Source: an uncultured Gammaproteobacteria bacterium
GTDB lineage: Bacteria > Patescibacteriota > Microgenomatia > UBA8517 > JACQJR01
Length of the DNA stretch: 64,000 bases
Assembly (NCBI GenBank): GCA_964442455.1
Contig: CAYTZB010000001.1
Location: 21,910-85,909, forward strand
Direction: 5' to 3'
The notes under the pieces are model-generated. The model worked only from the letters and a program-made list of their open reading frames with translations. It was not told the DNA's origin and made no database searches. This document shows positions 4,340 to 63,195 of the stretch, one piece after another (within the stretch, counting starts at the first letter, position 1; every line of letters begins with the position of its first letter). Made by a program: the position numbers and the translations under genes.

Positions 4340-6966
4340 AGAAACGTACTATCTCTTTAAGTTTGACAATCCTGGCTTTAATAATAGCCCTTAGCTTTGG
4401 TCAGGCAATCCAGTTTACTCTTTGGCAGGATGATAATGCTTTAATTTTTAAGCTTCAACATTTAGAAGAACAAGCTGGTGTCTTTGGGCCTGGACCAGCT
4501 GGACTTGGTGCGTATCGCTACGTTGTACTCCCATACATTCCAATTTATAAAGTTTTTGGAATGAACATACCTAATTTTTATTTGTATACACTTTTCTTTT
4601 ACTTTCTCGCCGCAGCATCGGTTTTTTTGTTAACGAAATATTTAACGAAAAATAATATTGTTGCTTTGTTGTCGTGCGCAATTTTTTCTGCCGGATTTAT
4701 CGGCTCTGAAGGGATACTTAGACTTTTTAACGGTGTTCAAACAAGCTACAGCGTTTTTTTCGTGAGTTCATTCTTCTTGTTACTTTACCGGTTTATTAAG
4801 ACAAAGCACGCTATTTATTATTTCTTAGGATTATTGTTTTACTTTATTGCTCTGGAAACAGCTTTTATTCGTACGCAATATTTAATTTTACCGACCGTAA
4901 TTTTTTTTATTTTGTTTCTGGATTGGGGGAAACGGCCCTTTATTTCTTTAGAAACAAACTTGTTTATTCTAAAAAATATATTTTTAGTTGTACCCTTTTT
5001 ATTTATTTATCGTTTTGTTTTTTTGCGTAGCTCCGATGCAAGGGCCGATTTGGTTAAGGATTATGTTATGGGCATACTAAATGGAAATTTAGACTACACT
5101 CATAGTTTTTTTGGGACATTGGGAAGTATTATTTTACCTGATCCTATTACAAACTTCTTGTTTGATGCTATTGGTAATCTCAGCTTAGATTACACAAATC
5201 GCTTGTTGATGTTGGAGCTTTTATTCTTGGGGATAAGCTTTATTATTATTAATTTTGTTTTTAAAAATATCCCCAAGATTACTCGTGTCCTAATCTTTTT
5301 TCCTTTGGTAATTTGGTTTGTCTTAGGAATGATTTACTTTCAAAACTCGGAGAAGATATTTGTCCATTCGGAAATTGTAGATACCCTTGGAGTTTTTGCG
5401 AATTTTGTTGGAGGACTGTTTATTATTATTTCAACCTCTATTTTGATAACAGCATTCAAGAAAACCGCGACCCGTAATGAACAAGTGGGAAAACTTTCTT
5501 TATTCCTTTTATCATGGCTTTTAGCAAATATACTGGCATATTCAATTTATCTACCGTTTTCTCCTCTTGAAAGTATAAATCGTTATCTTGTCCACTCCTT
5601 AGCAGCTTACGCAATATTTATCCCATTGTTTTTATATTATGCTTGGGGAAGAAGAGTTACTATTGTTCTCTCAAGTTTTATTGTTTTGACAAATATTTTT
5701 TGGTCTTTAGATTACCAACAAAGATTCATAGTTGAGAGGACGGTTCCTACACGTATTTTTTATCAAGATTTAAGGAAATTTATTCCAGAATTGTCAAAGG
5801 GTGCAGTTGTTTATTTTGATGTTGCAAATGATAAAGTTTCCGAGCAGCAATTTCGCGATTTTTTTTCAGTTGGCTCTATGCCCGACGAAACTGCAATAGC
5901 TATAAGGTATGGTATTGATAGATATGATTTCAAAATAACTAAAGATTTTAATGAATTCCTTTCCCTTATTCAAGATAAATCTTTAGATCTTACTTTTTCA
6001 TTTTTTTACGATTCCACTGGTTTAAAAAATACAACCAAAATAATGAGAGTGAATTTAGTTGGCAAAGAAGTCGAAATTGACAGTAAAAATTTAAGCAATT
6101 TATCTTTAGTGACACCAGGTATATTGGAATTTAGTGCTAAAGTCATTCCAAAGATTAGTATTAAACAAAACTGCCCAAATTTTCCCGGGGACAGAGTAAA
6201 TCTTTTTAACTACCTTTTGGCTCGTGATAATTTTTATAAAAATGTTAAGGTTCAAACAAGCTCCCAGGAGAAATATCAGGCAAATGATTTTTTGAAAGAT
6301 GGTAAGTTTAATACATTATGGAGAGGTAGTAGAGGATGGTGGCATGAGAATAAGAAAGAAATAGTGACAGTTGATTTAGGAAGTCCAAAAAAAATTAATC
6401 AATTAGTCTGGATTAATGGCTATGCAAATTCTACACCCACAAAATATAAGATAGAAGTATCATTAAATGGAGAGAACTGGGATGTAGTAAGGAGAGTAGA
6501 TTCTGGTGCCAGGAAGGAAAACACAGGCCTAGTTACAGATAATTTCGAAACTTTCAAAGCCCGTTACATTAGACTAATAATAGAGGAAACTTTTGACAAT
6601 GACGCTCCTGCAATTGGTGAAATTGAGGTTGTCGAGGAAGACTTTGAAGGTATTAATAAAGAGAAAATAGAGAAACTAAAAGAAATTGCTCTTTGTGCAA
6701 ATAATCTGGAGTCTTTAAATAGTGTTAATCAGTTCATAAATAAAATTGGCATAGAAGGAGTAGTTTCCTGGAAGACAGACAAGAGTAACGACAATGTTGT
6801 TAGATTAAGTCTCCAAGCAGATGGTCTTTATCATAGCTACAAAGTTTTTTTGCCAGCAGGGGGTACTAAACTAAACGATTTAGTAATTGAACCTTGGGTA
6901 GTACCAGTGGACATTTCTGTAATTGGTTTAAAACTTATCTATCCAAATAATCTGAAAACAGATTGA
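4336..6966 (+). CDS. Tandem paralog of 1727..4339: polytopic membrane protein (putative GT-C) with C-terminal discoidin domain.
   Basis: The N-terminal regions align ('DDNALIFKLQHLEE' versus 'DDNALIYKLQHINE'). C-terminal discoidin signature 'NTLWRGSRGWWHENKKEIVTVDLG...YKIEVSLNGENWD...ARYIRLIIEETFDNDAPAIGEIEV'. ATGA overlap with the upstream gene. Confidence 0.55.
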   Translation: MKKRTISLSLTILALIIALSFGQAIQFTLWQDDNALIFKLQHLEEQAGVFGPGPAGLGAYRYVVLPYIPIYKVFGMNIPNFYLYTLFFYFLAAASVFLLTKYLTKNNIVALLSCAIFSAGFIGSEGILRLFNGVQTSYSVFFVSSFFLLLYRFIKTKHAIYYFLGLLFYFIALETAFIRTQYLILPTVIFFILFLDWGKRPFISLETNLFILKNIFLVVPFLFIYRFVFLRSSDARADLVKDYVMGILNGNLDYTHSFFGTLGSIILPDPITNFLFDAIGNLSLDYTNRLLMLELLFLGISFIIINFVFKNIPKITRVLIFFPLVIWFVLGMIYFQNSEKIFVHSEIVDTLGVFANFVGGLFIIISTSILITAFKKTATRNEQVGKLSLFLLSWLLANILAYSIYLPFSPLESINRYLVHSLAAYAIFIPLFLYYAWGRRVTIVLSSFIVLTNIFWSLDYQQRFIVERTVPTRIFYQDLRKFIPELSKGAVVYFDVANDKVSEQQFRDFFSVGSMPDETAIAIRYGIDRYDFKITKDFNEFLSLIQDKSLDLTFSFFYDSTGLKNTTKIMRVNLVGKEVEIDSKNLSNLSLVTPGILEFSAKVIPKISIKQNCPNFPGDRVNLFNYLLARDNFYKNVKVQTSSQEKYQANDFLKDGKFNTLWRGSRGWWHENKKEIVTVDLGSPKKINQLVWINGYANSTPTKYKIEVSLNGENWDVVRRVDSGARKENTGLVTDNFETFKARYIRLIIEETFDNDAPAIGEIEVVEEDFEGINKEKIEKLKEIALCANNLESLNSVNQFINKIGIEGVVSWKTDKSNDNVVRLSLQADGLYHSYKVFLPAGGTKLNDLVIEPWVVPVDISVIGLKLIYPNNLKTD

Positions 6967-6997
6967 CTAGTGTAGAATGTCTTGTTAAACTCTTAAC

Positions 6998-7987
6998 GTG
7001 ACTCATGATATAGCAATTGTAGGTTACGGATACTGGGGGCCGAACCTTTTAAGGACCTTTATAAATATTCCAGATTGTACTGTACGTTATTGTTGCGATA
7101 TTGATGAAAAAAATCTGCAAGAAGTCAAGAGAAGATATCCTCATGTTCTGACCACTACTGATTTTAAAGAGATAATTTCTGATAGTAATATTGACGGTGT
7201 AGTTTTGGCAACACCAACGAATTCGCATTTTTTGTTAGCACAGCAGGCGATAAATGCCGGCAAGGATGTTTTGGTTGAAAAGCCAATGTCCACTACTTCC
7301 CAAGAAGCTCGAAAACTTGTTAGCTTGGCCCAAAAAACAAAAAGAATCTTGATGGTTGACTATGTCCTTTTGTTCAGCCCTGCAGTATTAAAAATTAAAG
7401 AATTGATAGACAAGGGAGAAATTGGAGAGATTCTGTACATCGATTCTACACGGACAAATTTAGGTCTTTTTCAAAAAGACAGTAATGTAATTTTTGATTT
7501 AGCATCCCATGAATTTTCAATAGTTCAGTTTATTTTAGGAACAAAACCAACAAAAGTAAGTGCAACTGGTAAATCACATATAAATGATCAGGTAGATGTT
7601 GCTTATATTACAGCAGAGTATCAGAAAAATATTATTGCGCATGTTCATATTAGTTGGCTTTCTCCGGTTAAAGTTAGGAGAATGCTTATTGTCGGAAGCA
7701 AAAAAATGATAGTTTATGATGATAACGAATCATCGGAAAAGATTAAGGTTTATGATAAAGGTATAGTTAGAGAGAAATCTCACAACGAGAATGGGCAAAT
7801 TGAGATAGGTTATAGATTTGGTGATGTCTGGTTGCCCCATATAGAAACAATTGATCCATTGACCTTTATGGCTCAGAGTTTTATTGATGCGGTTTCAAGT
7901 CGCAAAGTAACAAGAAGCGACGGAAAATTCGGCGCGGAAATTGTTGAAATTTTAGAAAGAGCAACTAAATTGCTTAACGCAAAGTAG
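6998..7987 (+). CDS. Gfo/Idh/MocA-family NAD(P)-dependent sugar oxidoreductase (WbpB/WlbA-like).
   Basis: N-terminal Rossmann motif '[12 protein letters not shown]', then 'EKPM' and the C-terminal GFO_IDH_MocA_C region. GTG start. Confidence 0.7.
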
Positions 7988-15260: not shown

Positions 15261-16214
15261 ATGACTAGTAACTATCTAGTAACTGGGGGAGCGGGTTTCA
15301 TCGGCAGTTTCGTAGTGGAGGAGCTTCTTGCCCGTGGTAAAAATGTGACGGTGTTGGACAACTTCAGTTCTGGTTCAAAAGAGAACCTTACCCAGGTCCA
15401 GAAGATTGTCCAGGGCCGTCTTCGAGTCCTGAAGGGCGACATCCGTAAACTGTCGGATCTTGAGAAGGTTTGTCGTGGTATCTCGGTAGTCTATCACATG
15501 GCTGTTCAACCGCTGACATTGGGACTGGAGGACCCCCTTATAATGAACGAGGTGAATAGCACTGGTACTCTCAATACTCTTCATGCTGCCCACCTTGCGG
15601 GTATTCAACGTTTTAACTATATTTCCTCTTCAGAGGTTTATGGAACAGCGCAGTATGTACCTATGGACGAGAATCATCCGCGCGTACCCCTAACCGTGTA
15701 CGCGGCCTCAAAACTTGCTGGCGAAGCGTATGTGCAAGGGTATTACAACACCTACGGTCTAACTTACACTATAATTCGCCCTTTCAACTCATATGGCCCA
15801 CGTCACCGGGACGATGGCTATTGCGCAGTATTATTTCGCTTCTTGCAATGTGTAATCAAAAACGAACCACCCCAAATTTACGGGGATGGTAAGCAGACGC
15901 GCGATATGTCTTATGTTGAGGATACCGCGCGAGGCATCGTACTCGCGGGAGAGTCTCCAAGAGTGATAAATGATGTGGTGAATATCGGTACTGGCCGGGA
16001 GGTGCAAGTTAACGAAGTGGCACAAGCAGTGCTCGAAATACTTGGCTCGAAACTCAAGCCCAGAAAGGTGGCACCCCGGCCAGGGGACGTGCGTAGACAC
16101 CTGGCTGGGATAGCAAAGGCTCAGTATTTACTCGGGTATAAGCCACGCTTCACATTCGCTGAGGGCGTACTTAAGACTATTGAATGGTATTTACAGAAAC
16201 ACTCCAAGAGGTGA
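15261..16214 (+). CDS. NAD-dependent epimerase/dehydratase (extended SDR; UDP-sugar 4-epimerase or 4,6-dehydratase-like). Lies in a GC-rich island.
   Basis: 'VTGGAGFIGS' Rossmann motif and catalytic 'YAASK' (YxxxK); 317 aa. GC content and codon usage (ctg, ggc, cgt) differ markedly from the neighbouring genes. Confidence 0.75.
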   Translation: MTSNYLVTGGAGFIGSFVVEELLARGKNVTVLDNFSSGSKENLTQVQKIVQGRLRVLKGDIRKLSDLEKVCRGISVVYHMAVQPLTLGLEDPLIMNEVNSTGTLNTLHAAHLAGIQRFNYISSSEVYGTAQYVPMDENHPRVPLTVYAASKLAGEAYVQGYYNTYGLTYTIIRPFNSYGPRHRDDGYCAVLFRFLQCVIKNEPPQIYGDGKQTRDMSYVEDTARGIVLAGESPRVINDVVNIGTGREVQVNEVAQAVLEILGSKLKPRKVAPRPGDVRRHLAGIAKAQYLLGYKPRFTFAEGVLKTIEWYLQKHSKR

Positions 16215-47936: not shown

Positions 47937-49396
47937 TTTTCATAATTCTTATACTTGGGTTTTTACTTAGACTGATTTCCCTTAACCAGTCTTTATGGCA
48001 TGATGAGGCGACAAGTGCGTTGGTGGCACGCGACTTTTCTGTTGCCGAAATTTTAACACAATTCTCTCCCGGTGACTTCCACCCACCGTTTTACTACTTG
48101 ATGCTCCACTTTTGGATACAAGTTTTCGGTACCTCAGAAGTTGCTATTCGAATGCTATCAATACTATTTGGTGTTGCAACGGTTTGGCTGATTTATAAAA
48201 TAGCTAAAACCATACAGCCATCTAACCATTTAGCCATTTTGTCTGCTCTCTTTCTTGCCACCGCCCCGCTCCACATCTACTATTCTCAAGAAGCACGGAT
48301 GTATGTACCTGCAGCGTTTTTTGCAGTCCTTTCAGTTTGGTTTTTCTTGAAAATTATTAAAGCGAAAAAACAAAGAGTGATGGATTGGGTGGGATTAGTA
48401 ACTGTAAGTACACTTCTTCTCTATACTGATTACCTTCCCGTTTTTCTTTTCCTCTTTTTCGCTTTGTATTTACTCGTGTTCGAAAGAAAACATCTTAAAA
48501 GGAATGTTACCAACTGGTTGTTATCTACCGGAGCCATTCTTTTCCTCTTTTTACCTTGGGTGCCGATGTTATTTGGGCAACTTGCGGCAGGTTTGGGGGT
48601 ACAAATGACTAACCCCCAATGGTGGAATGTGCTGGGCGGAACGAACGTAAAAGAGCTTGCGTTAGTACCTATTAAATTTATGATTGGGAGAATATCGTCA
48701 GAAAATGATGTGCTTTATGCCGCATCTATTGTTATTCCAACTGTACTTTTCGCGAGCGTTTTCCTCAAAAGTGTTACTCTGTGGCAGCGAACAAAGTTTG
48801 TATGGGTATGGTTTATGTTACCTATTCTCGCAGTGGCTCTGGTGGGAGTAAGACTTTCAGTCTTTTCCTATTTTCGGCTCATTTTTTTGCTGCCTCCATT
48901 TTATTTACTTGCGGCATTTGGCGCGCTTTCATTTAAAAATAGTAAAGCGAAGTTCATAGCGATGGCCGGGTTACTTTTGGTTAATATGGTTTCAAGTAGT
49001 ATATATCTTTTTAATTCGCGCTTTCATAGAGAAGATTGGAGAGGGGCGGTAAGTTTTATTGAACAAAGAGTGCAATCTCATGCTCTTGTTCTTTTTGAAA
49101 GTAAAAGTGTCTTGCCTGGTTTTTCTTGGTATTCAAAGGAAGTAGTTGACGGTGTAGGTGGTTTGACGCCACAGCTTTACCAAATTATAAAAGAAAGAGA
49201 GCAGATTTTTGTTTTTCAATACTTGGTCCAGATAAATGATCCGGAAAGGGTAGTTGAAGAAACATTGGAAGAAAATGGTTTTGTTAGGATAGCGACTTAT
49301 AATTTTCGCGGAGTGGGGTTTGTTTTCGAATATCAACGCGGGGTACAATTAACTCAAGATGAAGATTGGAATAGATATTTCGCAAATAGTTTATGA
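47933..49396 (+). CDS. GT-C glycosyltransferase of the PMT/ArnT (GT39/GT83) family.
   Basis: 'LLRLISLNQSLWHDEATSALVARDF...FHPPFYYLMLHFW' is the classic first-loop DE motif region of PMT_2/ArnT-like enzymes. Confidence 0.65.
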   Translation: MIFIILILGFLLRLISLNQSLWHDEATSALVARDFSVAEILTQFSPGDFHPPFYYLMLHFWIQVFGTSEVAIRMLSILFGVATVWLIYKIAKTIQPSNHLAILSALFLATAPLHIYYSQEARMYVPAAFFAVLSVWFFLKIIKAKKQRVMDWVGLVTVSTLLLYTDYLPVFLFLFFALYLLVFERKHLKRNVTNWLLSTGAILFLFLPWVPMLFGQLAAGLGVQMTNPQWWNVLGGTNVKELALVPIKFMIGRISSENDVLYAASIVIPTVLFASVFLKSVTLWQRTKFVWVWFMLPILAVALVGVRLSVFSYFRLIFLLPPFYLLAAFGALSFKNSKAKFIAMAGLLLVNMVSSSIYLFNSRFHREDWRGAVSFIEQRVQSHALVLFESKSVLPGFSWYSKEVVDGVGGLTPQLYQIIKEREQIFVFQYLVQINDPERVVEETLEENGFVRIATYNFRGVGFVFEYQRGVQLTQDEDWNRYFANSL

Positions 49397-50522
49397 GACT
49401 GGCGTTTCATGGTATACGAGGAGTTTGGTACATGCCCTCCTCTTGCTTAATAAAAAAGATGAGTATTTCCTCTTCGGTGGTGCCATGCGCCGTTTGCCTG
49501 ATTTAAATCATTTTAGCAAGGACCTTGGAGGCGATTTCACAAAAAAGTTTTATCCACTTTCTCCCACGATACTTGATTTTTTATGGAATCGGCTTCACAT
49601 CTCTCCAATTGAAAACTTTGTAGGAAAAGTTGAAGTATTCCATTCTTCTGATTGGGCGCAACCTCCAGCGCGACGAGCAAAAGTAGTCACAACAATCCAT
49701 GATCTCGTTCCACTTTTATATCCTGAGAGTTCGCATCCTAAAATTGTGGCTGTGCATAAAAGACGGCTTGAGTGGGTAAAGAAAGAGTGTGAGCAGGTGA
49801 TAGCAGTGTCGGAGGCTACCAAAAATGACATCATAACTTATTTGGGAATTCCGGCGAAAAAAATTTCAGTGGTGTATGAGGCACCAGATGCAATTTATAA
49901 AAAAGTAGGCCGCCGGCCCGGAGAGGCTTCTCGCCGAGTCGGAGACTCTCCAGAGTCGGAGACTGGTTCGGAGGGGGATAAGAGAGTAGGGGAGGTAAAA
50001 AAGAAATTTGGTCTTCCACGACAATTCTTGCTTGCAGTAGGAGCAGACCCGCGAAAAAATCTGTCAAACGTGGCTCAAGCACTTACACTCATTCCCGATG
50101 CGCCAAAGTTAGTAGTTGTGGGAAGGAAGTGGAACGCACCCTCCTCCGCTAAAGCTTCGGATGGGCAAGGCAATATTTTATGGCTAGGACATGTTTCCAG
50201 GACGGATCTCACTGCCTTGTATAGTGGTGCACAAGCGTTGGTATACCCTTCCCTTTATGAAGGGTTTGGTTTGCCAATACTTGAAGCTTTTGCATGTGGT
50301 TGTCCGGTGGTAACGTCGAATATCTCAAGTATGCCTGAGGTAGCAGGGGATGCAGCGGTGTTGGTAAACCCAGAGGATGTTGATGATATAAGAAGAGGAA
50401 TTGAACGAGTGCTTTCAAAAAGAGAGGAATTCATTGAAAAAGGTTTTAGGCGAGTTAAAGAATTTTCGTGGAAGAAAACAGCCCAAGAAACTCTTAGAGT
50501 TTATCGTGAGTTGATACAGTAA
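49359..50522 (+). CDS. GT4 glycosyltransferase with a GC-rich repetitive in-frame insertion in the inter-domain linker.
   Basis: 'EGFGLPILEAFACGCPVVTSN' E-x7-E motif. Linker 'RRPGEASRRVGDSPESETGSEGDKRVGEV' is encoded by 49906-49998, which contains a 17-nt direct repeat. Confidence 0.6.
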   Translation: MKIGIDISQIVYETGVSWYTRSLVHALLLLNKKDEYFLFGGAMRRLPDLNHFSKDLGGDFTKKFYPLSPTILDFLWNRLHISPIENFVGKVEVFHSSDWAQPPARRAKVVTTIHDLVPLLYPESSHPKIVAVHKRRLEWVKKECEQVIAVSEATKNDIITYLGIPAKKISVVYEAPDAIYKKVGRRPGEASRRVGDSPESETGSEGDKRVGEVKKKFGLPRQFLLAVGADPRKNLSNVAQALTLIPDAPKLVVVGRKWNAPSSAKASDGQGNILWLGHVSRTDLTALYSGAQALVYPSLYEGFGLPILEAFACGCPVVTSNISSMPEVAGDAAVLVNPEDVDDIRRGIERVLSKREEFIEKGFRRVKEFSWKKTAQETLRVYRELIQ

Positions 50523-54275: not shown

Positions 54276-55605
54276 GAATTTTATTTTTAAATGGGGTCTG
54301 GCGGTAATTTTACTTGCTATACCTTTATATCCTAAGTTTCCTCTTTTTAATATACCGGGAACGTATGTTGCAGTGAGAATGGAAGATATTTTGCTTGCGG
54401 CTCTTGGGATATTTCTTTTGTTAAAAGTAGTACAAAATCATCGCTCTTTTTTTCAGAGCAGCATTACCCGTGCATTCTTTCTGTTCTTTGCGGCAGGGTT
54501 GGTGTCAATTGTGGCCGGTATCTTTTTAACCCATACCGTTGTACCACATATAGGACTGCTCCATTGGGTAAGAAGGATTGAATACGTTGTTCCTTTTTTT
54601 CTTGCGTACAGCTTCGCGCGGGTAGAGCGGCATGCATATTTCTTTATTGAGGTGCTTCTGGTTGCCGCGTTCTTAGTGTTTTTGTATGGGTTAGGGCAAA
54701 TCCATTTTGGCTTTCCGGTGATTTCAACCCAAAATGCGGAATTTTCGAAAGGATTGGCACTCCGATGGTTGCCGGGAGCGCGGCTTCATTCGACGTTCGG
54801 GGGACATTATGATTTGGCAGCATTTTTAGTGCTTGTCCTTCCGCTGGGAATTGCGTACCTTTTTGCGGTAAGGAATATTGTAGGGAGAGCGGTTATCTTT
54901 GGTGTTACTCTCTGTCTTTTGTGGCTGCTTGTGACTGCTGCCTCTCGGATTTCCGTCGCAGCGTACTTTCTAGGACTATTGGTAACTCTTTGGTTCTTGA
55001 AGCGACGAGTCTTTTTAGTGTATATGATAGCCATAAGCATCGCGTTTGTACTTACTTCGGATTTGGCTGGCAAGTATAAATTTACTCTACAGCAGCTATT
55101 CGGAAGAGTCGAGATAACAAGAATTGCGTGGGCGCAAGAAGAGAAGCTCTCTCCTACTCCCGTTCCCCCACCACCAATTTTCGAAGACCGCTCAACTGCA
55201 ATTCGTCTGAATGTTGAATGGCCGAGGGCATTGCGTGCGTTCTTTAAGAATCCTCTACTGGGGACCGGATTTTCCTCCATCACCCTTGCAACCGATAATG
55301 ATTACCTTCGCATGTTAGGGGAAGTGGGGGTGGTGGGCACGCTGGCGTTTTTCCTTGTGTTGGTAAGAATCGGACAAAAAATGTGGAAATTCCTACGGGA
55401 GTTTCGGCCAAACGGGGGCACTCTTGCCTCCCAAGATGTGTTGGTTGTGGGGGCAGTAGGGGGAGCAGTGGGACTGCTTGCGAATGCGGCATTTATTGAT
55501 GTATTCGAGGCCTCAAAGGTGGCACTTATATTTTGGACACTTCTGGGGATATCGGTAGGAATTATTAATACGCGTATGAAGAGGGAGAGTCGTGAAGAAA
55601 ATTAA
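54250..55605 (+). CDS. O-antigen ligase/polymerase-like (Wzy_C family) polytopic membrane protein.
   Basis: About 11 helices and a large loop with 'ATDNDYLRMLGEVGVVGTLAF', resembling the Wzy_C/WaaL 'HNxYLxxLxExGxxG' motif. The start was moved from 54199 to ATG 54250. Confidence 0.5.
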   Translation: MFTRLVEFENFIFKWGLAVILLAIPLYPKFPLFNIPGTYVAVRMEDILLAALGIFLLLKVVQNHRSFFQSSITRAFFLFFAAGLVSIVAGIFLTHTVVPHIGLLHWVRRIEYVVPFFLAYSFARVERHAYFFIEVLLVAAFLVFLYGLGQIHFGFPVISTQNAEFSKGLALRWLPGARLHSTFGGHYDLAAFLVLVLPLGIAYLFAVRNIVGRAVIFGVTLCLLWLLVTAASRISVAAYFLGLLVTLWFLKRRVFLVYMIAISIAFVLTSDLAGKYKFTLQQLFGRVEITRIAWAQEEKLSPTPVPPPPIFEDRSTAIRLNVEWPRALRAFFKNPLLGTGFSSITLATDNDYLRMLGEVGVVGTLAFFLVLVRIGQKMWKFLREFRPNGGTLASQDVLVVGAVGGAVGLLANAAFIDVFEASKVALIFWTLLGISVGIINTRMKRESREEN

Positions 55606-57049
55606 TAGAATAATAAAAAGGTTAGTAAAACCAGAGTATCTTTTGTTGGTGCTCATTCTTCTTATTGCACTGTGGGCCCGTCTTTACAAAATAGATAATC
55701 CTGTTGCCGACTGGCATTCTTGGCGACAGGCAGATACCGCCTCAGTCACTCAATTTTATGTTGAGCGCGGGATTGATTTACTTCGTCCTCGCTATCTTAA
55801 TATCTCAAGCAGTGCCACAGGATACGAGAATCCTAAAGGTTACCGATTTGTTGAGTTCCCCGTTTTCAATGCTGTACATGCACTCCTTTATCAGGCATTT
55901 CCTTCCTGGTCACTTGATCGATGGGGTCGACTCATCGCTGCTACTGCTTCGATTATCTCACTATTCTTTATCTTTTTAATTGGCAAACGATTTTTAGGGA
56001 CTGCGGTGGCTTTACTTGCTGCACTCTTTTTTGCCATTCTTCCCTTCAATGTTTATTTTTCCCGCGTCATACTTCCCGATCCTTTGACTGTTACTGTTGC
56101 AATTGTAAGCTTATGGTTTTTTGTCTGGTGGATTGATACCGAGCGGTCATGGAAGCTGTTTACCTCGGCATTCTTTTTTGCGACGGCCCTACTTCTTAAA
56201 CCTTACATTGTTTTTTATAGCATACCGATGCTTTACCTTGCAGTGACAAAATATGGTGTGTGGGGAGCAGTGAAAGAGGCAAAACTATGGATGTTTTTTT
56301 GTCTCTCACTTATCCCGGTTTTCTTCTGGCGTGCATGGATGGGGCACGATTATTACTTTGTGGGTATTCCTTTTTGGGAGTGGGCATTTAATGGAGATGA
56401 AATTAGGTTTAAACCCTCATTTTGGTGGTGGCTCTTTGGACAGCGTCTGGGATTGCTCATTTTAGGAGGATGGGCGCTTGTTCCATTTGTCATTGGACTG
56501 CTGTCTCCTTCCCGTGGGAAGTTCCCCTGGTTTGTACACTCTATGCTTGCGGGACAGTTGTTGTACATAGCGGTTGTGGCAACCGCAAATGTGCGACACG
56601 ATTACTACCAAACACTGCTTATTCCCGCAGTTGTCCTTCCTCTCGCGAATGGAACGTATTTGTTATGGCGGCTGCGTGCGTTCAACCAATTTCTTACCCG
56701 CGTGGCGGTGTTGGGGACTCTTGCAGCAGGATTGGCATTTTCTTTTTATCAAATTAAAGAGTTTTATAAAGTTAATCATCCCGAGATTATGATTGCCGGC
56801 GCCGCAGCTGACCGATTATTACCAAAAGACGCAAAAGTCATAGCTCCCTACAATGGTGATACCGCATTCTTGTATCAAACGAAACGTCAAGGGTGGCCGG
56901 TTGCGACGCTCCCCATGGACCAAATGATTAGTCGGCTTGATGCCGAGTATTATGTATCGGTCAATTACGATGCACAGACGAAGGAGGTAATGGAAAAATA
57001 TACGGTGCTTGAGAAAACAAATGAGTATGTGGTGGTTAAACTAAAATGA
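55592..57049 (+). CDS. GT-C glycosyltransferase of the PMT/ArnT-like family.
   Basis: 'LLIALWARLYKIDNPVADWHSWRQADTASVTQ' first-loop motif; 485 aa, about 11 helices. Confidence 0.55.
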   Translation: MKKINRIIKRLVKPEYLLLVLILLIALWARLYKIDNPVADWHSWRQADTASVTQFYVERGIDLLRPRYLNISSSATGYENPKGYRFVEFPVFNAVHALLYQAFPSWSLDRWGRLIAATASIISLFFIFLIGKRFLGTAVALLAALFFAILPFNVYFSRVILPDPLTVTVAIVSLWFFVWWIDTERSWKLFTSAFFFATALLLKPYIVFYSIPMLYLAVTKYGVWGAVKEAKLWMFFCLSLIPVFFWRAWMGHDYYFVGIPFWEWAFNGDEIRFKPSFWWWLFGQRLGLLILGGWALVPFVIGLLSPSRGKFPWFVHSMLAGQLLYIAVVATANVRHDYYQTLLIPAVVLPLANGTYLLWRLRAFNQFLTRVAVLGTLAAGLAFSFYQIKEFYKVNHPEIMIAGAAADRLLPKDAKVIAPYNGDTAFLYQTKRQGWPVATLPMDQMISRLDAEYYVSVNYDAQTKEVMEKYTVLEKTNEYVVVKLK

Positions 57050-57150
57050 GTGTCCTTGCGGGTCCTGCCCCGGGTTATCCCTCCCGCCAGTGCTCGGCAT
57101 TTGCTTGCGCGCGTGTCGGGATCCCTTCCACCCGTGTCACCCGCGGCGGA
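57050..57150. repeat. GC-rich ~100-nt intergenic element, homologous to the in-frame insertion at 62491-62604.
   Basis: Very GC-rich by eye in an AT-rich context. Shares 'gggtcctgcc', 'tccctcccgcc' and 'tccctcc..c.cg.gtcacccg' blocks with 62491-62604. Confidence 0.55.
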
Positions 57151-57168
57151 CTTTAGACTATTTTATTT

Positions 57169-58359
57169 ATGAAAATCTTGATGCTTACTCCCTACCTTCC
57201 TTATCCGCTCTTATCCGGAGGGCAAACCCGCTCGTATAACTTGCTCAAAAATTTGTCAGGTACGCACGAAATTACCCTTTTTTCCTTGGTAAAAGATGAA
57301 AGAGAGCAACGTTACATTGGGGAACTTAAGAAGTTTTGTAAAAATGTGGTGATATTTCCCCGTTCCAGTAATCCTTGGACACTGCGTAACATTTTACTTA
57401 CAGGTTTCTCTCTTTATCCCTTTTTAGTGATGAGAAATTTGTCTCCACAAGAGCGAGAGGCAGTGAGAGTACACTTGCGGGAAGTGTCGTATGATTTAAT
57501 TCACGCAGAGACATTCTATGTTATGCCGCATATTCCCAAAACATCCATTCCTATTTTACTTGTTGAGCAAACGGTAGAATATCTTGTTTATAAACATTAT
57601 GTTGAAGAACAAGCGCCGTTTCTTTTACGCCCACTCTTGTGGATTGATATTGCAAAAATAAAGTTTTGGGAGACGTACTTTTGGCAACGAGCGAACAGAG
57701 TTGTTGCGATGTCCGAGGCGGACAGACACTCAATGCAAAAACTTGTTCCTGGATTGGCAGTTGATATTGTACCTAACGGTATAGATACCGAGCACTTTTC
57801 AATAGAAAAGAAACGAAACGCCGGTCCCCAAAGAATTCTTTATGTGGGTAATTTCAAATGGCTACAAAATAGAGAAGCAGTAGATGTACTTGCAACACGC
57901 ATATGGCCACGGATTAAAAAGAGGATTCCAAATGCGAAGCTTTTGATTGTAGGTATGAGCTTAACACGAGACGTTAAAGAGTTACAAAGTAAAGATATTG
58001 AAGTTGTCGAAGGTATACCCGATATTCGTGAAGCATATGAGAGGGCAGATGTATTAGTTGCGCCAATTGAAGGTCCGGGGGGGACAAGACTTAAAATTCT
58101 TGAAGCAATGGCATCAGGCGTTCCCGTGGTAACTACAAAGATTGGTATCGAAGGATTAGATGTAAGGGATGGAATACATGCGCTTATTCGCAACACCGAG
58201 CAAGATTTGACTGCTGCGACAGTGCGTGTACTCACCGATAAAAAACTGTCAGAAAAAATTGCTACCAATGCAAAAAAATTAGTGAGAGAGAAGTATAATT
58301 GGGAAGCTTCAGCAAACGCACTCGATAAGATTTATCGCCAATTAGCAAACACACAATGA
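57169..58359 (+). CDS. GT4 glycosyltransferase.
   Basis: 'MKILMLTPYLPYPLLSGGQTRSYNL' and 'GPGGTRLKILEAMASGVPVVTT'. Confidence 0.65.
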   Translation: MKILMLTPYLPYPLLSGGQTRSYNLLKNLSGTHEITLFSLVKDEREQRYIGELKKFCKNVVIFPRSSNPWTLRNILLTGFSLYPFLVMRNLSPQEREAVRVHLREVSYDLIHAETFYVMPHIPKTSIPILLVEQTVEYLVYKHYVEEQAPFLLRPLLWIDIAKIKFWETYFWQRANRVVAMSEADRHSMQKLVPGLAVDIVPNGIDTEHFSIEKKRNAGPQRILYVGNFKWLQNREAVDVLATRIWPRIKKRIPNAKLLIVGMSLTRDVKELQSKDIEVVEGIPDIREAYERADVLVAPIEGPGGTRLKILEAMASGVPVVTTKIGIEGLDVRDGIHALIRNTEQDLTAATVRVLTDKKLSEKIATNAKKLVREKYNWEASANALDKIYRQLANTQ

Positions 58360-59294
58360 AAACACAGCCAGATCTTTCAATTGTGATTCTTAATTATAAC
58401 GCAAAAAACTTTGTTACTCAGTGTATTCAATCAATTGTCCATCAGGGGCGGATGAGCCTTTGGTCCAAAAGATCAAAAGATACTAAATATTCTTATGAAA
58501 TTATTGTGGTTGATAATGCCTCGTCAGATGGAAGCATAGAAATGCTTAGAGAAATGCGAAAGAAGACAAAGTTCCAATTAATTGAAAACAAAGAAAATTT
58601 AGGATTTTCCAAAGGGAATAATGTTGCAGTGCCTTATGCAAAAGGTCGGTATATTCTTTTTTTGAATCCGGATACAATCGTAGCCCCAAATACTTTTGTT
58701 TATATGACTCGCTTTATGTATAAACATCCACAGGTTGGGGCTGCAACTTGTAAATTAAAGTCCCCTACTGGCGGACTCGATGAAGCGGCACATCGCGGCT
58801 TTCCCACTCCCTGGAATGCTTTTTGTCACTTCTTTGGACTTGAGCGACTTTTCCCAAAATCACGTTTATTCTCCGGATATACGTTGGGGTATCTTCCAAG
58901 AACCACAATACATGAAATAGACGCGCTCAGTGGAGCGTTCATGATAGTTCGCCGCAAAGCAGGAGAAGGAGTTTCTTGGTGGGACGAGGATTATTTTTGG
59001 TATGGAGAAGATGTTGATTTTTGTTACCGATTGAAAAAAGCGGGGTGGAAAATTATGTATGTTCCCAGCGTTTCTATCTTACACTATCGAGGGGTATCCT
59101 CAGGAATTAAAAGACAAACCAGGGAAGTATCTGTGGCGACAAAAGAGACACGAAAGATGGCAGCACGCGCATCTATTGAAGCAATGAAAATTTTTTATAA
59201 GAAACATTATACAGAGAGATATCCACAGTCCGTTTTGTGGTTAGTGTGGTTTGGAATCTGGATTTTAGAAAAGTACAGACTAATATTTTGGTAG
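58356..59294 (+). CDS. GT2 glycosyltransferase.
   Basis: 'LSIVILNYNAKNFVTQCIQSIVHQ...IIVVDNASSDGS' and 'NPDTIV'. Confidence 0.7.
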   Translation: MKTQPDLSIVILNYNAKNFVTQCIQSIVHQGRMSLWSKRSKDTKYSYEIIVVDNASSDGSIEMLREMRKKTKFQLIENKENLGFSKGNNVAVPYAKGRYILFLNPDTIVAPNTFVYMTRFMYKHPQVGAATCKLKSPTGGLDEAAHRGFPTPWNAFCHFFGLERLFPKSRLFSGYTLGYLPRTTIHEIDALSGAFMIVRRKAGEGVSWWDEDYFWYGEDVDFCYRLKKAGWKIMYVPSVSILHYRGVSSGIKRQTREVSVATKETRKMAARASIEAMKIFYKKHYTERYPQSVLWLVWFGIWILEKYRLIFW

Positions 59295-59312
59295 GCATAA
59301 GCGATATATGAT

Positions 59313-60440
59313 ATGAAGATACTCATTGATGCACGAATGTATGGACTAGAGCATGCAGGTATTGGACGGTATGTAATGAACCTCGTGTCCCAGCTGGTAG
59401 AGATAGATAAAACTAACCAATATATTCTTCTCGTAAACCGAAAACTGACTACTGACTACCGACTACCAACAACCGACAACTGGGAACTGGAATTTGTTGA
59501 TGTTCCCCATTATAGTATTGCTGAACAAGTGCAGCTCCCTGCCATTCTTATAAAAGAGCAGTTTGATATTGCCCATTTCCCCCACTTTAATGTACCTATT
59601 TTTTTTAAGCGTCCATTTGTTGTCACAATTCATGATTTAATAAAACATACTTCTCGCGGTTTGGCGACTACCACGAGAGATCCACTTTTGTATTGGGTTA
59701 AATATGCAGGATACAAGATGGTATTTAGCAATGCAGTACATAAAGCTCGAAAGATTATTGTCCCAAGTAATGCTGTGAGAGATGAGCTCTTGAAGGAGTA
59801 TAGAGTTGATAGAGAGAAAGTGATGGTTATTTATGAAGGAGCAGACGAGATATTTAGTAAAACTCAAAAACTCCAGAACTCCAAACGAATAATAAATAAA
59901 TACAAAATTCCCCAACAATATGTAATTTATGCAGGCAGTGCGTATCCACACAAAAATCTAGAACGACTTATTAAAGCAGTGAAACAAAGTAGAACAAATT
60001 TAATTATCGCGAGCGCACGGAATGTTTTTACTGCCCGATTAATACAATATGTTAATAAAATCAAAGCTGATTCTTTTGTAAACTTTCTAGGGTTTGTTTC
60101 AGATGAAGATTTAGTAATACTCTATAAAAATGCGAAAGCGTTTGTTTTTCCATCTTTATCGGAAGGGTTTGGTTTACCGGGTTTGGAAGCAATGACAACA
60201 GGGTGCCCCGTAGTTTGTTCAGACATACCAGTATTTCATGAAATTTACGGTGACGCCGCAACGTATTTTAACCCCAGAGATGTAGTTGATATTGCTTCAA
60301 AAATAAATGAGGTACTCCGCTTTGATGTTTCGAAACATCAAAACATGGTTGAAAAAGGAAAAGAGCGAGCAAAACAATTCTCCTGGAAAAAAATGGCAGA
60401 AGAGACACTTCAAGTCTACAAAGAAGCTCTCTTAAGGTAG
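59313..60440 (+). CDS. GT4 glycosyltransferase.
   Basis: 'EGFGLPGLEAMTTGCPVVCSDIPVFHEI'. Contains a degenerate heptamer repeat at 59446-59480. Confidence 0.65.
   Translation: MKILIDARMYGLEHAGIGRYVMNLVSQLVEIDKTNQYILLVNRKLTTDYRLPTTDNWELEFVDVPHYSIAEQVQLPAILIKEQFDIAHFPHFNVPIFFKRPFVVTIHDLIKHTSRGLATTTRDPLLYWVKYAGYKMVFSNAVHKARKIIVPSNAVRDELLKEYRVDREKVMVIYEGADEIFSKTQKLQNSKRIINKYKIPQQYVIYAGSAYPHKNLERLIKAVKQSRTNLIIASARNVFTARLIQYVNKIKADSFVNFLGFVSDEDLVILYKNAKAFVFPSLSEGFGLPGLEAMTTGCPVVCSDIPVFHEIYGDAATYFNPRDVVDIASKINEVLRFDVSKHQNMVEKGKERAKQFSWKKMAEETLQVYKEALLR
59446..59480 (+). repeat. Degenerate tandem heptanucleotide repeat (tgactac-like) x5 inside a GT4 coding sequence.
   Basis: Direct read: tgactac tgactac cgactac caacaac cgacaac. 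Confidence 0.7.
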
Positions 60441-60492
60441 AAAATTTTCGCAGGTGTCATTGAGAATTATTTGGCCTTTCTTTAGCTAAGTA

Positions 60493-61731
60493 TTAGCTAG
60501 ATACACCCAAAGGAGACGGGGTCAAAGTAGGATATGCACTACGAATAGCACTTAATAATTCTTTTATTCTATCCTCATTTAAATCAGCGATATTGAGAAT
60601 AAGAAGTAATAACTTCTGTGTCTCCTCATCATTTTTATCATAAGCTCCCTCACGCGCCCTAGTAAAATGAGAAATTTTTTCAAGGACGCTGGGAAGTCTT
60701 TCTATGATAAACTCTCGGTTAACATCTATACCCTCTTTATTTGCTAGCTTACTTATTATTGGATTTATTATACGACGTCTCGCCTGATCATCAATTATAA
60801 CTCCAACCAACCTCCACTTATTTTCTAGTCCAGGAGCTCTTAAAATCGCACCCAAAACAATTGTATCCTCAATTGTAAACCTATATGGATTTTCAATTTC
60901 ACTTTCTGGAGTAGGAGTTAATTCTTCTGACAGTTGACGAGCACCATCCGTTATAACAACAGAAGTGGTGGGAATAGTCCCTTCTTCTAAAACACTGGCT
61001 ATTACTTCTTCTCTGGAAGTAATAGGGTCAGTTTGGACAGAAGAAGTCTCTACTCTTTCTGATTGAGTTTCATTTGTTCTTATCAAAGAATAACGAGCTT
61101 CTACACCACGACGCCGCCCACTATGATTTACAGAATTATGAATAATCGCCCCTATATTCCTTAACTTTTCATTAAGCTTCGAAATGTCAGCACTAAGTAG
61201 TTGTTTGGCCCTATCAACATCGGACTCGTCAGGACGTGCACTCTTTGCCAATTCTGATCTTGAGATTTCTTCTCCTTCTTGAAGGGTACTAAGCTTTTGC
61301 ACAATCATAAATTCTGATGGTGATAATCCTATAATTTGCTGATCCTCAAAGGTAAAAGAGTAGTGTCCTCGAGAGGATATTTTACTAGGTTCAGGAAATA
61401 TCTGAGTGGCTAGTTCATCTGGAAGATCCCCATCTTCAACAGTTACACCAGTTCCTATCTCGATTGCTCCTAAACGGGATTTATCCAAAAGTTCAATTAA
61501 TTCTCTAGGAAATGCCTCGAGGTTAAGGTTCAACTCACGCAGCTGTAGATGGCCGCTTTCAAATTGCCCCACAAGTGCATTACCAGTTCGCGGATCTCTG
61601 CCAAATGCTAGGATTCTTCCAGCTATCCCCCAGAGGTTATCTAAGACCTCTCCTAATTGTTTATTGCGCTCCCTACCTTGCTTTACCAGCTCACCGGCTT
61701 GTTGGGATAAGACTTCTTTTGAACTTGCCAT
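60493..61731 (-). CDS. Hypothetical soluble protein with an internal OmpR/PhoB-type winged-helix-like segment (possible DNA-binding regulator without a receiver domain).
   Basis: Segment 'LSPSEFMIVQKL...ISRSELAKS...VDRAKQLLSADISKLNEKL...RRRGVEARYSL' resembles the Trans_reg_C pattern 'LTPTEFxLLxxL...SRExL...VDVHIxRLRKKL...VRGxGYRL'. No TM helices. It is the only long minus-strand gene in a plus-strand block. Confidence 0.3.
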   Translation of the reverse strand: MASSKEVLSQQAGELVKQGRERNKQLGEVLDNLWGIAGRILAFGRDPRTGNALVGQFESGHLQLRELNLNLEAFPRELIELLDKSRLGAIEIGTGVTVEDGDLPDELATQIFPEPSKISSRGHYSFTFEDQQIIGLSPSEFMIVQKLSTLQEGEEISRSELAKSARPDESDVDRAKQLLSADISKLNEKLRNIGAIIHNSVNHSGRRRGVEARYSLIRTNETQSERVETSSVQTDPITSREEVIASVLEEGTIPTTSVVITDGARQLSEELTPTPESEIENPYRFTIEDTIVLGAILRAPGLENKWRLVGVIIDDQARRRIINPIISKLANKEGIDVNREFIIERLPSVLEKISHFTRAREGAYDKNDEETQKLLLLILNIADLNEDRIKELLSAIRSAYPTLTPSPLGVSS

Positions 61732-61938
61732 TTTATTAGATTTTGTGGAAGTTATTTATTTTAAACTCTAACTTGAAAGAATAAAAGAGTCAAGGGACCG
61801 ATATAAGGTATAAATACAAAAATCTATTCTTCATTTTCTTGCTATAATTCCATCATAAACGATTAAAATGAGAGTAGATTTGGTTTATTTCGAAGTACAC
61901 TATTGGCGAACGAGAGTCAAACCAAGGAGGCTTGAAGA

Positions 61939-63093
61939 ATGAAAGCCGCGTTGGTTTATGACAGAGTGAATAAGTGGGGTGGGGCGGAGAGAGTACTTTT
62001 GACGCTGCATGAGATGTTTCCCCAAGCGCCGCTTTATACATCAGTTTACAATCCTGAAACTGCACCGTGGGCTCGTGTATTTGATGTGAGAACTTCATTC
62101 CTCCAAAATTTTCCCTACGCGCCATCCACTCACGAGTTATATGCCATTCTCATGCCTCTTGCTTTTGAAAGTTTCAACTTTGACAACTATGATGTGGTGA
62201 TTTCGGTGACGAGCGAGGCAGCCAAAGGAATTATTACAAAACCAGGAACGCTCCATCTTTGCTACTGTTTAACACCGACACGATATTTATGGAGCGGTTA
62301 CGAAGATTACTTCGATAAACCCATAACAAAATTTTTCACAAAACCTATAGTCTCGTATTTGAGGAATTGGGATAAAGTGGCCGCACACAGACCAGATAAA
62401 ATTATCGCAATCTCACAAACAGTGGCTGATCGAATTAAAAAGTATTACGGAAGAGAAGCAAATGTTATTTATCCACCAGTTGGGATAATGACGGGTCCTG
62501 CCGCTCGCTCGTCCCGCCCGACGTCCTCCCCGCCAACAGTCGAGCAGTCTGGGCGGGTTGCGGGCGCTCGGTGGGACTCCCTCCGCTCGCGTCACCCGTC
62601 ATCGTTTTATGAGTACTTTTTAATCGTCTCTCGTCTTGTTCCTTACAAACGAGTTGATTTGGTAATTGAGGTGTTTAATCAATTGAAACTTCCACTTATT
62701 ATCATTGGAATCGGTAGAGAGGAAGGAAAACTGAAAAGGATGGCAGGGTCCACTATTACCTTTGTCGGCCAGTTGACAGATGAAGAGCTTGCCTTGTACT
62801 ATGAAAAGGCAGCAGCCATTATCTTCCCGCAAGAGGAAGATTTTGGTATTGTGGCAGTTGAAGCACAGAGAATGGGAACACCGGTCATTGCATATAAAGG
62901 CGGGGGAGCGCTTGAAACTGTCCGCCCTGGGCGGACCGGTGAGTTTTTTGAAGAGCAAAATGTTGATGCGTTGGCTCGGGTGATACAAAGCTTTAATAAA
63001 GCGAAGTATAAACCTGAAATTTTAAAAAAACATGCACAAAAGTTTTCTAAAGAAAGATTTAGGAGGGAATTTTTAAAAATTTCTAATTTCTAA
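61939..63093 (+). CDS. GT4 glycosyltransferase carrying a GC-rich ~114-nt in-frame insertion (62491-62604) in the inter-domain linker.
   Basis: AAGGAGG ribosome-binding site. 'EDFGIVAVEAQRMGTPVIAYKGGGALETV' E-x7-E region. The linker 'TGPAARSSRPTSSPPTVEQSGRVAGARWDSLRSRHPSS' is encoded by a very GC-rich segment. Confidence 0.65.
   Translation: MKAALVYDRVNKWGGAERVLLTLHEMFPQAPLYTSVYNPETAPWARVFDVRTSFLQNFPYAPSTHELYAILMPLAFESFNFDNYDVVISVTSEAAKGIITKPGTLHLCYCLTPTRYLWSGYEDYFDKPITKFFTKPIVSYLRNWDKVAAHRPDKIIAISQTVADRIKKYYGREANVIYPPVGIMTGPAARSSRPTSSPPTVEQSGRVAGARWDSLRSRHPSSFYEYFLIVSRLVPYKRVDLVIEVFNQLKLPLIIIGIGREEGKLKRMAGSTITFVGQLTDEELALYYEKAAAIIFPQEEDFGIVAVEAQRMGTPVIAYKGGGALETVRPGRTGEFFEEQNVDALARVIQSFNKAKYKPEILKKHAQKFSKERFRREFLKISNF
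62491..62604 (+). repeat. GC-rich repeat element inserted in-frame within a GT4 coding sequence (homolog of 57050-57150).
   Basis: See shared blocks with 57050-57150. 114 nt equals 38 codons and the ORF stays open. Confidence 0.55.
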
Positions 63094-63195
63094 TTATTCT
63101 AATTAACCTAAAGAATGTCCAAGCACCAATTTGTAATTGGGCATTGGGATTTGATTAGAAATTAGTAATTAGGTCAATTAGGTTAATCATGTATT

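Follow-up and report, generated by a model that had tools for sequence, protein, structure and literature searches.

Two GC-rich segments in a 64,000-nucleotide stretch of contig CAYTZB010000001.1 (assembly GCA_964442455.1, positions 21,910 to 85,909, hereafter the window) are very probably copies of a non-autonomous, GC-rich palindromic repeat family, dispersed through genomes of Patescibacteria, also called the candidate phyla radiation (CPR). One of them occupies the spacer between two glycosyltransferase genes, and the other is inserted in frame within a gene of the glycosyltransferase family 4 (GT4), between the two domains of the encoded enzyme. Both had been noticed in an earlier reading made from the sequence alone, which likened them to Rickettsia palindromic elements (RPEs). 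Members of this family occur many times per genome, in spacers and genes and in both orientations. It is apparently a dispersed CPR hairpin repeat family without earlier description, and full-text searches of the accessible literature returned no account of such an element in CPR.

The window copies and the repeat family

The overall GC content of the window is 37%, and a 60-nt sliding scan identified only two islands of about 110 nt with at least 70% GC, at 57048-57157 and 62470-62615, in line with the contrast to an AT-rich context that had earlier been judged by eye. The location of the two segments stood, while their limits, initially drawn at 57050-57150 and 62491-62604, were refined to hairpins at 57052-57151 and 62488-62602. 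The intergenic copy (57052..57151, + strand, core 57060-57142) is of subtype B, forms an imperfect hairpin GTCC..GCGGGT ... ACCCGC..GGAC and is 89% identical to a copy at another locus, in the leucyl-tRNA synthetase (LeuRS) gene, of the closest relative genome (locus L111). The intragenic copy (62488..62602, + strand, core 62493-62597) is of subtype A, with a hairpin closed by ATGACGGGT/ACCCGTCAT. The ordered blocks common to both segments, namely CGGGTCCTGCC, TCCCTCCCGCC/TCCTCCCCGCC, GCGCG..GGGA and CCCT(T/C)CC..GTCACCCG, are present in the order originally reported.

Direct BLAST of one segment against the other is weak (E ~0.04), and their local alignment attains a score of 24 as compared to 11.9 +/- 2.1 in composition-matched shuffles, a value reached by 1 of 2000. 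Using a profile built from 117 copies of other genomes, from which the window copies were excluded to avoid circularity, only these two segments were matched in the 64-kb window, with E values of 1.9e-14 (intergenic) and 1.7e-12 (intragenic). A covariance model run with filters off agrees, giving 72 bits and 55 bits, respectively, with the next matches in the window at E >1. The window hence holds exactly two copies, which belong to one repeat family as had been proposed, and a chance similarity of the two segments is ruled out by the independent profile together with the shuffle test.

Alignment of 119 distinct copies defines the element as an imperfect palindrome of ~80-120 nt, GGGTCCTGYC ... 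GGGANNCCYTCC ... GYCACCC, which carries no open reading frame (ORF) of its own and has ~68% G+C, with 41% C on one strand, in host genomes of ~35-45% GC. Its outer stem comprises a variable flank and GGGT/ACCC, and the terminal inverted repeat is short, ((G/A)AC)GGGT...ACCC(GT(C/T)). This is followed by an internal loop near the base with CCTGYC facing GYCA, a 6-bp stem P2 of free yet complementary sequence, an asymmetric loop whose 3' side carries CCYTCC, another stem (CTCCCGCCAG/CTGTCGGGAG in subtype B and GTCCCGTCCGA/TCGACGGGAC in subtype A) and a variable apical hairpin, or tip. Paired cells amount to 85%, as compared to 71% after shuffling and 38-54% in slid controls, and double-sided changes number 388, as compared to 123 +/- 9 and 58-97, respectively. 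At every P2 position CG, GC, AU and UA all occur, and one-sided (G-U) states almost never do, which argues for Watson-Crick complementarity at the level of DNA and not for selection on an RNA fold. In young copies, the hairpin is near-perfect (z = -9.3 for L095), so that both the fold and the covariation of the stems are consistent with the conserved structure for which the sequence-only reading had advised a check. The window copies give z values of -0.4 (DNA) and -0.24 (RNA) for the intergenic copy and -1.5 (DNA) and -2.95 (RNA) for the intragenic one, and are old, partly decayed relics of the family. Therefore, the suggestion that they constitute a notable feature of this genome was not upheld, as such decayed copies are not striking for this genome in particular. 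Six Roizmanbacteria copies (L087, L095, L118, L128, L134 and L187) carry perfect inverted repeats of 6-12 nt directly outside the core; these differ between copies, e.g. GAATTGTTGAC[core]GTCAACAATTC, are accompanied by no direct target duplication, and in some cases recur as outer stems at different sites.

Further copies were sought across GTDB genomes, one for each species, with the pattern GGGTCCTGYC-N(42-72)-GGGANNCCYTCCNNNNNNGYCACCC, derived from seven copies. This retrieved at least 115 stretches from other genomes, nearly all from Patescibacteria, in line with the expectation of additional copies; the source genome itself was covered by the 64-kb window with its two copies. Among the matches listed (80 loci), 76 are from Patescibacteria or low-GC metagenome-assembled genomes (MAGs): 11 loci belong to one Roizmanbacteria assembly (JACOYT01, with at least 13 copies), 11 to Levybacteria, 18 to Saccharibacteria, including MAGs from animal gut, 12 to other Patescibacteria labels, 21 to low-GC MAGs labelled Gammaproteobacteria and 3 are unlabelled, with the remaining 4 in high-GC Solirubrobacterales MAGs. 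The same pattern gave zero matches in 2.9 million viral contigs of IMG/VR, and in 36 loci no copy overlapped rRNA, tRNA or tmRNA, one copy lying 30 nt from a tRNA. In the window, no Rfam 15 family was found at gathering score and no tRNA or tmRNA was found by ARAGORN, and at E up to 10 the element itself drew only chance Rfam matches to miRNA hairpins, far below threshold. A concatenated A+B peptide profile compared with 5.8 billion proteins gave only 3 weak matches, this search being uninformative.

Two taxonomic observations accompany this distribution. The MAGs labelled 'uncultured Gammaproteobacteria' (L001, L111 and L143, all of GCA_964363945.1, contigs CAYIKF01..., and ~20 other loci) have 36-47% GC, and the label is probably wrong, since the L001 assembly carries a Microgenomates-type glycosyltransferase operon syntenic with the window. 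The copies in Solirubrobacterales (Actinobacteria), at L099 4728-4811, L124 1915-1998, L157 5599-5683 and L158 1187-1269, lie on MAG contigs of 68-69% GC with their complementary stems intact, and could mean either that the element genuinely occurs outside CPR or that it was passed between the lineages of epibiont and host.

When the 124 copies were assigned to their context, 70 were found in long open frames (52 sense and 18 antisense), 35 were intergenic and 19 ambiguous, with the intragenic copies distributed over 46 host protein families. This distribution bears on whether the element could instead be a functional structured nucleic-acid motif under host selection, for example a signal for RNA processing or stability, or a DNA hairpin that binds protein, like repetitive extragenic palindromic (REP) sequences and bacterial interspersed mosaic elements, rather than a selfish repeat. 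Conserved loops and strongly covarying stems across very distant CPR lineages, copies that are stable between related genomes, the same sites being occupied in several lineages and the lack of any transposase found near the copies would all suit such a motif. However, a motif of this kind is unlikely, as the copies occur in both orientations in so many unrelated ORF families as well as in spacers, their stems are devoid of the G-U intermediates expected under RNA selection, many orthologues are without the element with no evident consequence, the folds of the window copies are decayed and Rfam offers no match.

The GT4 linker and other host genes

The host of the intragenic copy is a GT4 glycosyltransferase gene (61939..63093, + strand), in which the insert corresponds to amino acids 185-222, between the N- and C-terminal Rossmann-type domains. 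As had been described, the segment 62491-62604 is 114 nt long, i.e. 38 codons, and is open in frame with the translation originally given, reading ..TGPAARSSRPTSSPPTVEQSGRVAGARWDSLRSRHPS.. across the element. The position ascribed to it, between the two Rossmann domains of the GT-B fold, agrees with the Pfam domains Glyco_transf_4 (amino acids 13-181) and Glycos_transf_1 (amino acids 225-368). In the AlphaFold model, with an overall predicted local distance difference test (pLDDT) score of 88 and a predicted template modelling score of 0.85, residues 181-225 have pLDDT values of 45-61, and the intragenic copy is predicted to sit in a low-confidence inter-domain loop.

The top homologues of this GT4 protein are from Levybacteria and Microgenomates. 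The closest orthologue (P0002, 78% identical, encoded on L001) is without the element and has in its linker an unrelated 84-nt AT-rich hairpin, and P0003 (75% identical) has a third, different insert. Over 120 orthologues, the linker between YPP(V) and YFLIVSRL varies from ~12 to 75 amino acids, with a commonest state of 14-17 amino acids in 80 metagenome loci, which represents the baseline of the orthogroup. The comparison of orthologues that the sequence-only reading had recommended thus speaks for an insertion. The same element was present at the same site in 5 further orthologues (L003, L005, L006, L007 and L025); the insert in L003 is homologous to the intragenic window copy, and element and flank identities between the two are similar (~70-73%).

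These comparisons leave it very unlikely that the GT4 segment is an ancestral, fast-evolving low-complexity linker which resembles the intergenic segment merely by a shared GC-rich composition. Variable linkers in all 120 orthologues, the weak direct BLAST match between the segments and the like identities of element and flank in the window and L003, as fits an old vertical inheritance of this copy, are in its favour. However, the independent profile matches both segments with E <1e-11 and nothing else in the window, the same element is found in dozens of unrelated genes and spacers, and the nearest orthologues carry unrelated inserts. Furthermore, the reading frame of the 3' half is not the same in subtype A as in subtype B, hence what is conserved is the nucleotide sequence. 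Matches of 1.5-1.7 kb to the GT4 gene in the metagenome loci, considered as a larger insert or intron, proved to be an artefact of joining matches to the adjacent GT4 paralogue.

The GT4 linker (window 62479-62613) was also found to accommodate other sequences. At least five other unrelated insert families occur across P0001-P0120, of the types DGRRWKIEDSNLKMEDRR..SSTFxHPSS, GAEVAxKNFRV..SENFxSSPR, AFSSLASSVQ..LNAKxLDAKR, GNSxxLIGNAAxIGNV and KFxIxNxK, for instance at L001 10541-10624, L019 10538-10606, L055 3328-3438 and L028 1565-1726, and these families are intermingled on the protein tree. The long linkers show a tendency to form hairpins (mean z -1.75 as compared to 0.0 in control segments, p = 1.5e-5), and the site appears to be a general hot spot for palindromic inserts. 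Inserts of the AT-rich KFKIQNSK type have counterparts in short AT-rich segments of further genes and loci (L005 713-757 and 6633-6666, the latter mid-way within a paralogous GT4 gene at 6010-7212; L009 2204-2275; L027 8937-9086; L025 4046-4109; L071 629-688; window 63144-63170) and may represent one more dispersed repeat, either of low complexity or hairpin-forming.

Where a copy is flanked on either side by long open frames, the frame through the element is the same in 54 cases and different in 4, as against a ratio of ~1:2 predicted by removal or bypass; hence the intragenic copies would be read through by the ribosome and translated, not spliced. One frame is used in 47 of the 52 sense copies, with ..RGPxxxFPPxSAP..RAVGSPSSxxTP.. 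as the resulting peptide, and at the level of host families xxG GGT CCT accounts for 30 of 34 sense-orientation counts. This preference is not due to stop-codon content, each of the three sense frames being open in 79-89% of copies. The encoded peptides are rich in Gly, Pro, Ser, Ala and Arg, e.g. RGPAxxFPPASAP...RAVGSPSSxVTP or ..GPAATFPPASAP... That the intragenic copy is instead removed or skipped, as a mini-intron, by excision of the bulge-helix-bulge type or by ribosomal bypass, to yield a protein without the 38 residues, is extremely unlikely even though a stable hairpin with conserved ends sits exactly at a domain junction and bypassed GC-rich mobile hairpins exist in yeast mitochondria: such a route would free both the frame and the stops, yet the frame is maintained in 54 of the 58 copies flanked by genes on either side, which argues against an intron or bypass, one frame is strongly preferred beyond stop-codon content, and no ribozyme or intron family is matched.

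In hosts checked against Pfam, inserts lie between domains, LeuRS included. The insert in arginyl-tRNA synthetase separates the catalytic and DALR domains, and in pyruvate phosphate dikinase (PPDK)/phosphoenolpyruvate (PEP) synthase an antisense copy stands between the mobile domain and the PEP-binding domain; further hosts checked were PMT_2, DUF2298 and a heavy-metal P-type ATPase. LeuRS was examined at three loci, and the gene in L192 (2930-5929) contains four element copies, all in frame. The colonisation of both spacers and ORFs in frame, as postulated from the two window copies, is thus reproduced across the family.

Other repeats within genes were observed alongside the element. The LeuRS gene of L106 (706-3528) contains, beside the GC-rich element, three in-frame copies of another peptide, (S/N)VILNSFQ(D/N)xGSxxxE(M/I)xKxV(Q/R)(H/D)D, which suggests that CPR genes contain yet another in-frame repeat family. 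In the window, 49899-49979 is a stretch of 70% GC at the equivalent mid-protein position of a second GT4-like gene (ORF 49359..50522, amino acids ~183-207); it contains a tandem GAGTCGGAGACT x2 (..KKVGRRPGEASRRVGDSPESETGSEGDKRVGE..), does not match the element model and may be an in-frame insert of a different family. A third GC-rich island, at 16041-16127 in an NAD-dependent epimerase/dehydratase-like ORF (15261..16214) and encoding ..PRKVAPRPGDVRRHLAGIAKAQ.., resembles ordinary coding sequence and gives no match to the element.

Insertion, turnover and a proposed mechanism

The intergenic site could be compared with an empty counterpart. The intergenic copy lies, as had been stated, between a GT-C gene, identified by Pfam as PMT_2 (55592..57049, + strand), and a GT4 gene (57169..58359, + strand, Pfam), and its insertion leaves both genes intact. 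The contig L001, which carries P0002, has the same gene order as the window, and the first 239 nt of the downstream GT4 gene are 94% identical. L001 has no spacer here, with the stop of PMT_2 overlapping the start of GT4 as ATGA (...CTACAATGAAAATTTT), and the window at this site reads ...CTAAAATGA + 119 nt + ATGAAAATC. The intergenic element is therefore an insertion, flanked by duplicated ATGA. The 119 nt (57050..57168, + strand) consist of the hairpin followed by a 17-nt AT-rich tail TTTAGACTATTTTATTT, and the left ATGA (57046..57049, + strand) contains the PMT_2 stop codon and the right ATGA (57169..57172, + strand) the start codon of the downstream GT4 gene, so that both are kept. In this single case, the ATGA duplication is a possible 4-bp target-site duplication. 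No terminator-like site was found on the intergenic copy in a consensus scan.

Presence and absence of copies together with their number per genome suggest that the family has been mobile. Both window copies are missing from the L001 assembly, yet related copies are present elsewhere in it (L111, in LeuRS, and L143). An uncharacterised 359-amino-acid protein has the element in one of its loops in L137 and L190 but not in 7 relatives, and L118 and L187 have in common an outer stem AAAAATAAAC/GTTTATTTTT (10 bp) at different sites. In Roizmanbacteria, outer stem, P2 and tip are combined in mosaic fashion among the copies, and the copies of a genome tend to be of one subtype. In the pair L150/L172, with flanks 90-91% identical, the copy common to both has undergone compensatory changes in its pairs, and its tip has been replaced. 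This pattern suggests concerted evolution through gene conversion between copies, or perhaps a renewed, site-specific insertion at hot spots.

Under the explanation of a dispersed, non-autonomous CPR repeat, copies would be made and inserted at the level of DNA, as the strictly Watson-Crick pairing with almost no G-T implies, by a mobilising machinery that would act in trans. Segments may then be exchanged among the copies of a genome by gene conversion, which would generate mosaics and genome-specific subtypes even at orthologous sites. Selection would purge out-of-frame or otherwise disruptive insertions, and the survivors would be translated as tolerated disordered loops. Of the window copies, one would have split the overlapping stop and start ATGA and duplicated it, and the other would have settled in the GT4 inter-domain linker.

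Several points weigh against this explanation. The conserved motifs are partly imposed by the search pattern, and translation is read from frame conservation and not observed. Clustering of gene neighbours (1382 ORFs from 115 loci of up to 8 kb, about 0.9 Mb around the copies) yielded no transposase or other recurrent gene near copies, the largest clusters being limited to at most 9 loci and of housekeeping nature (glycosyltransferase family 2, DNA polymerase III delta', HIT, YbeY, ATP-binding cassette transporter, phosphoribosyl pyrophosphate synthetase, RecR and tRNA synthetases), and no autonomous partner element was found in the loci around the copies. The ATGA case is the only clean empty-site comparison, other copies having inverted and not direct flanks. 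Genome pairs with 83-97% flank identity all share their copies, and no recent transposition was caught among them; the family is hence not turning over quickly. Finally, in three genes, genomes differ in the subtype found at the orthologous site, one having A and the other B (GT4, window 62493-62597 and L005 10549-10646; L143 3226-3313 and L183 694-777; and the 359-amino-acid protein, L137 606-709 and L190 2335-2426), and therefore hot spots or conversion in situ are needed.

A more far-reaching proposal, which we consider doubtful, is that of a very old, superphylum-wide hairpin module, whose two pyrimidine-rich loops, CCTGYC and CCYTCC, would be recognised by a conserved CPR factor; this factor would copy the element and homogenise its copies within each genome by gene conversion. 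Such a module would repeatedly furnish essential enzymes with disordered linkers of Gly/Pro/Ser, each time at the same junctions between domains, might move between CPR epibionts and Actinobacteria, and would form a distinct, undescribed class of DNA-level hairpin element.

CPR genomes are tiny and strongly reduced, and the repeat nonetheless resides inside the most essential genes, such as those for aminoacyl-tRNA synthetases, PPDK, ATPases and cell-envelope glycosyltransferases. Recognition of the family accounts for many unusual insertions rich in Pro, Ser and Arg, as well as for differences in length, among CPR proteins and averts their mis-annotation and misalignment, and a model of the element (R1) can serve as a nucleotide marker for CPR contigs. 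With loops that are invariant, stems that covary in strict Watson-Crick fashion, subtypes specific to the genome even where sites are orthologous, and no transposase found nearby, the family points to a mechanism of copying or conversion. Beside Rickettsia, it would provide a second, independent system of selfish DNA absorbed into proteins.

Comparison with known repeat systems

REP sequences and the REPINs formed from them are reportedly associated with RAYT transposases, and are extragenic by definition. The CPR element resembles them in consisting of GC-rich imperfect hairpins of comparable size with two inverted arms and many copies, as well as in compensatory stem changes, long-term vertical persistence and homogenisation within genomes. 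However, more than half of its copies are inside ORFs, and no RAYT/Y1 transposase was found among the recurrent neighbours in the ~0.9 Mb around copies. GC clusters of yeast mitochondria are GC-rich mobile hairpins, among which the 'byp' elements are bypassed by the ribosome, so that they are not bound to the reading frame. The CPR element shares with them the GC-rich mobile hairpin in AT-rich genomes and the landing within protein-coding genes, but differs from byp in keeping the frame (54 vs 4) and in its residence on bacterial chromosomes.

Bacterial miniature inverted-repeat transposable elements (Correia/NEMIS, ERIC, BOX, RUP and Nezha) are likewise small and non-autonomous, and at times lie in frame within genes (PMC10969869). 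The one CPR case with a short direct duplication, ATGA, is similar, whereas the terminal inverted repeats of the CPR element are only ~4-7 bp (GGGT/ACCC + GAC/GTC) and match no insertion sequence found nearby, and most copies have copy-specific inverted flanks without a direct target duplication.

RPEs are ~150-bp palindromic repeats of many families, about half of which are in frame in unrelated metabolic genes with a conserved encoded peptide (PMC10969869). Both systems comprise short (~100-150 nt) palindromic repeats without coding capacity, many per genome, which are present in spacers and in frame within unrelated housekeeping ORFs and exhibit a preferred frame, a recurrent peptide and positions compatible with the protein fold. 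They differ in that the CPR element is hosted by Patescibacteria and not by Rickettsiales, is GC-rich (~68% G+C) in genomes of ~35-45% GC, spans several class-level CPR lineages and not one genus, and has invariant loops with freely covarying stems. The Rickettsia-like interpretation from which this analysis started is thus supported in behaviour, as copies are both intergenic and in frame in 46 unrelated host families, and no sequence homology to RPEs is claimed. By this analogy, the element is best placed among the in-frame palindromic repeats, its likeness to RPEs being one of behaviour only.

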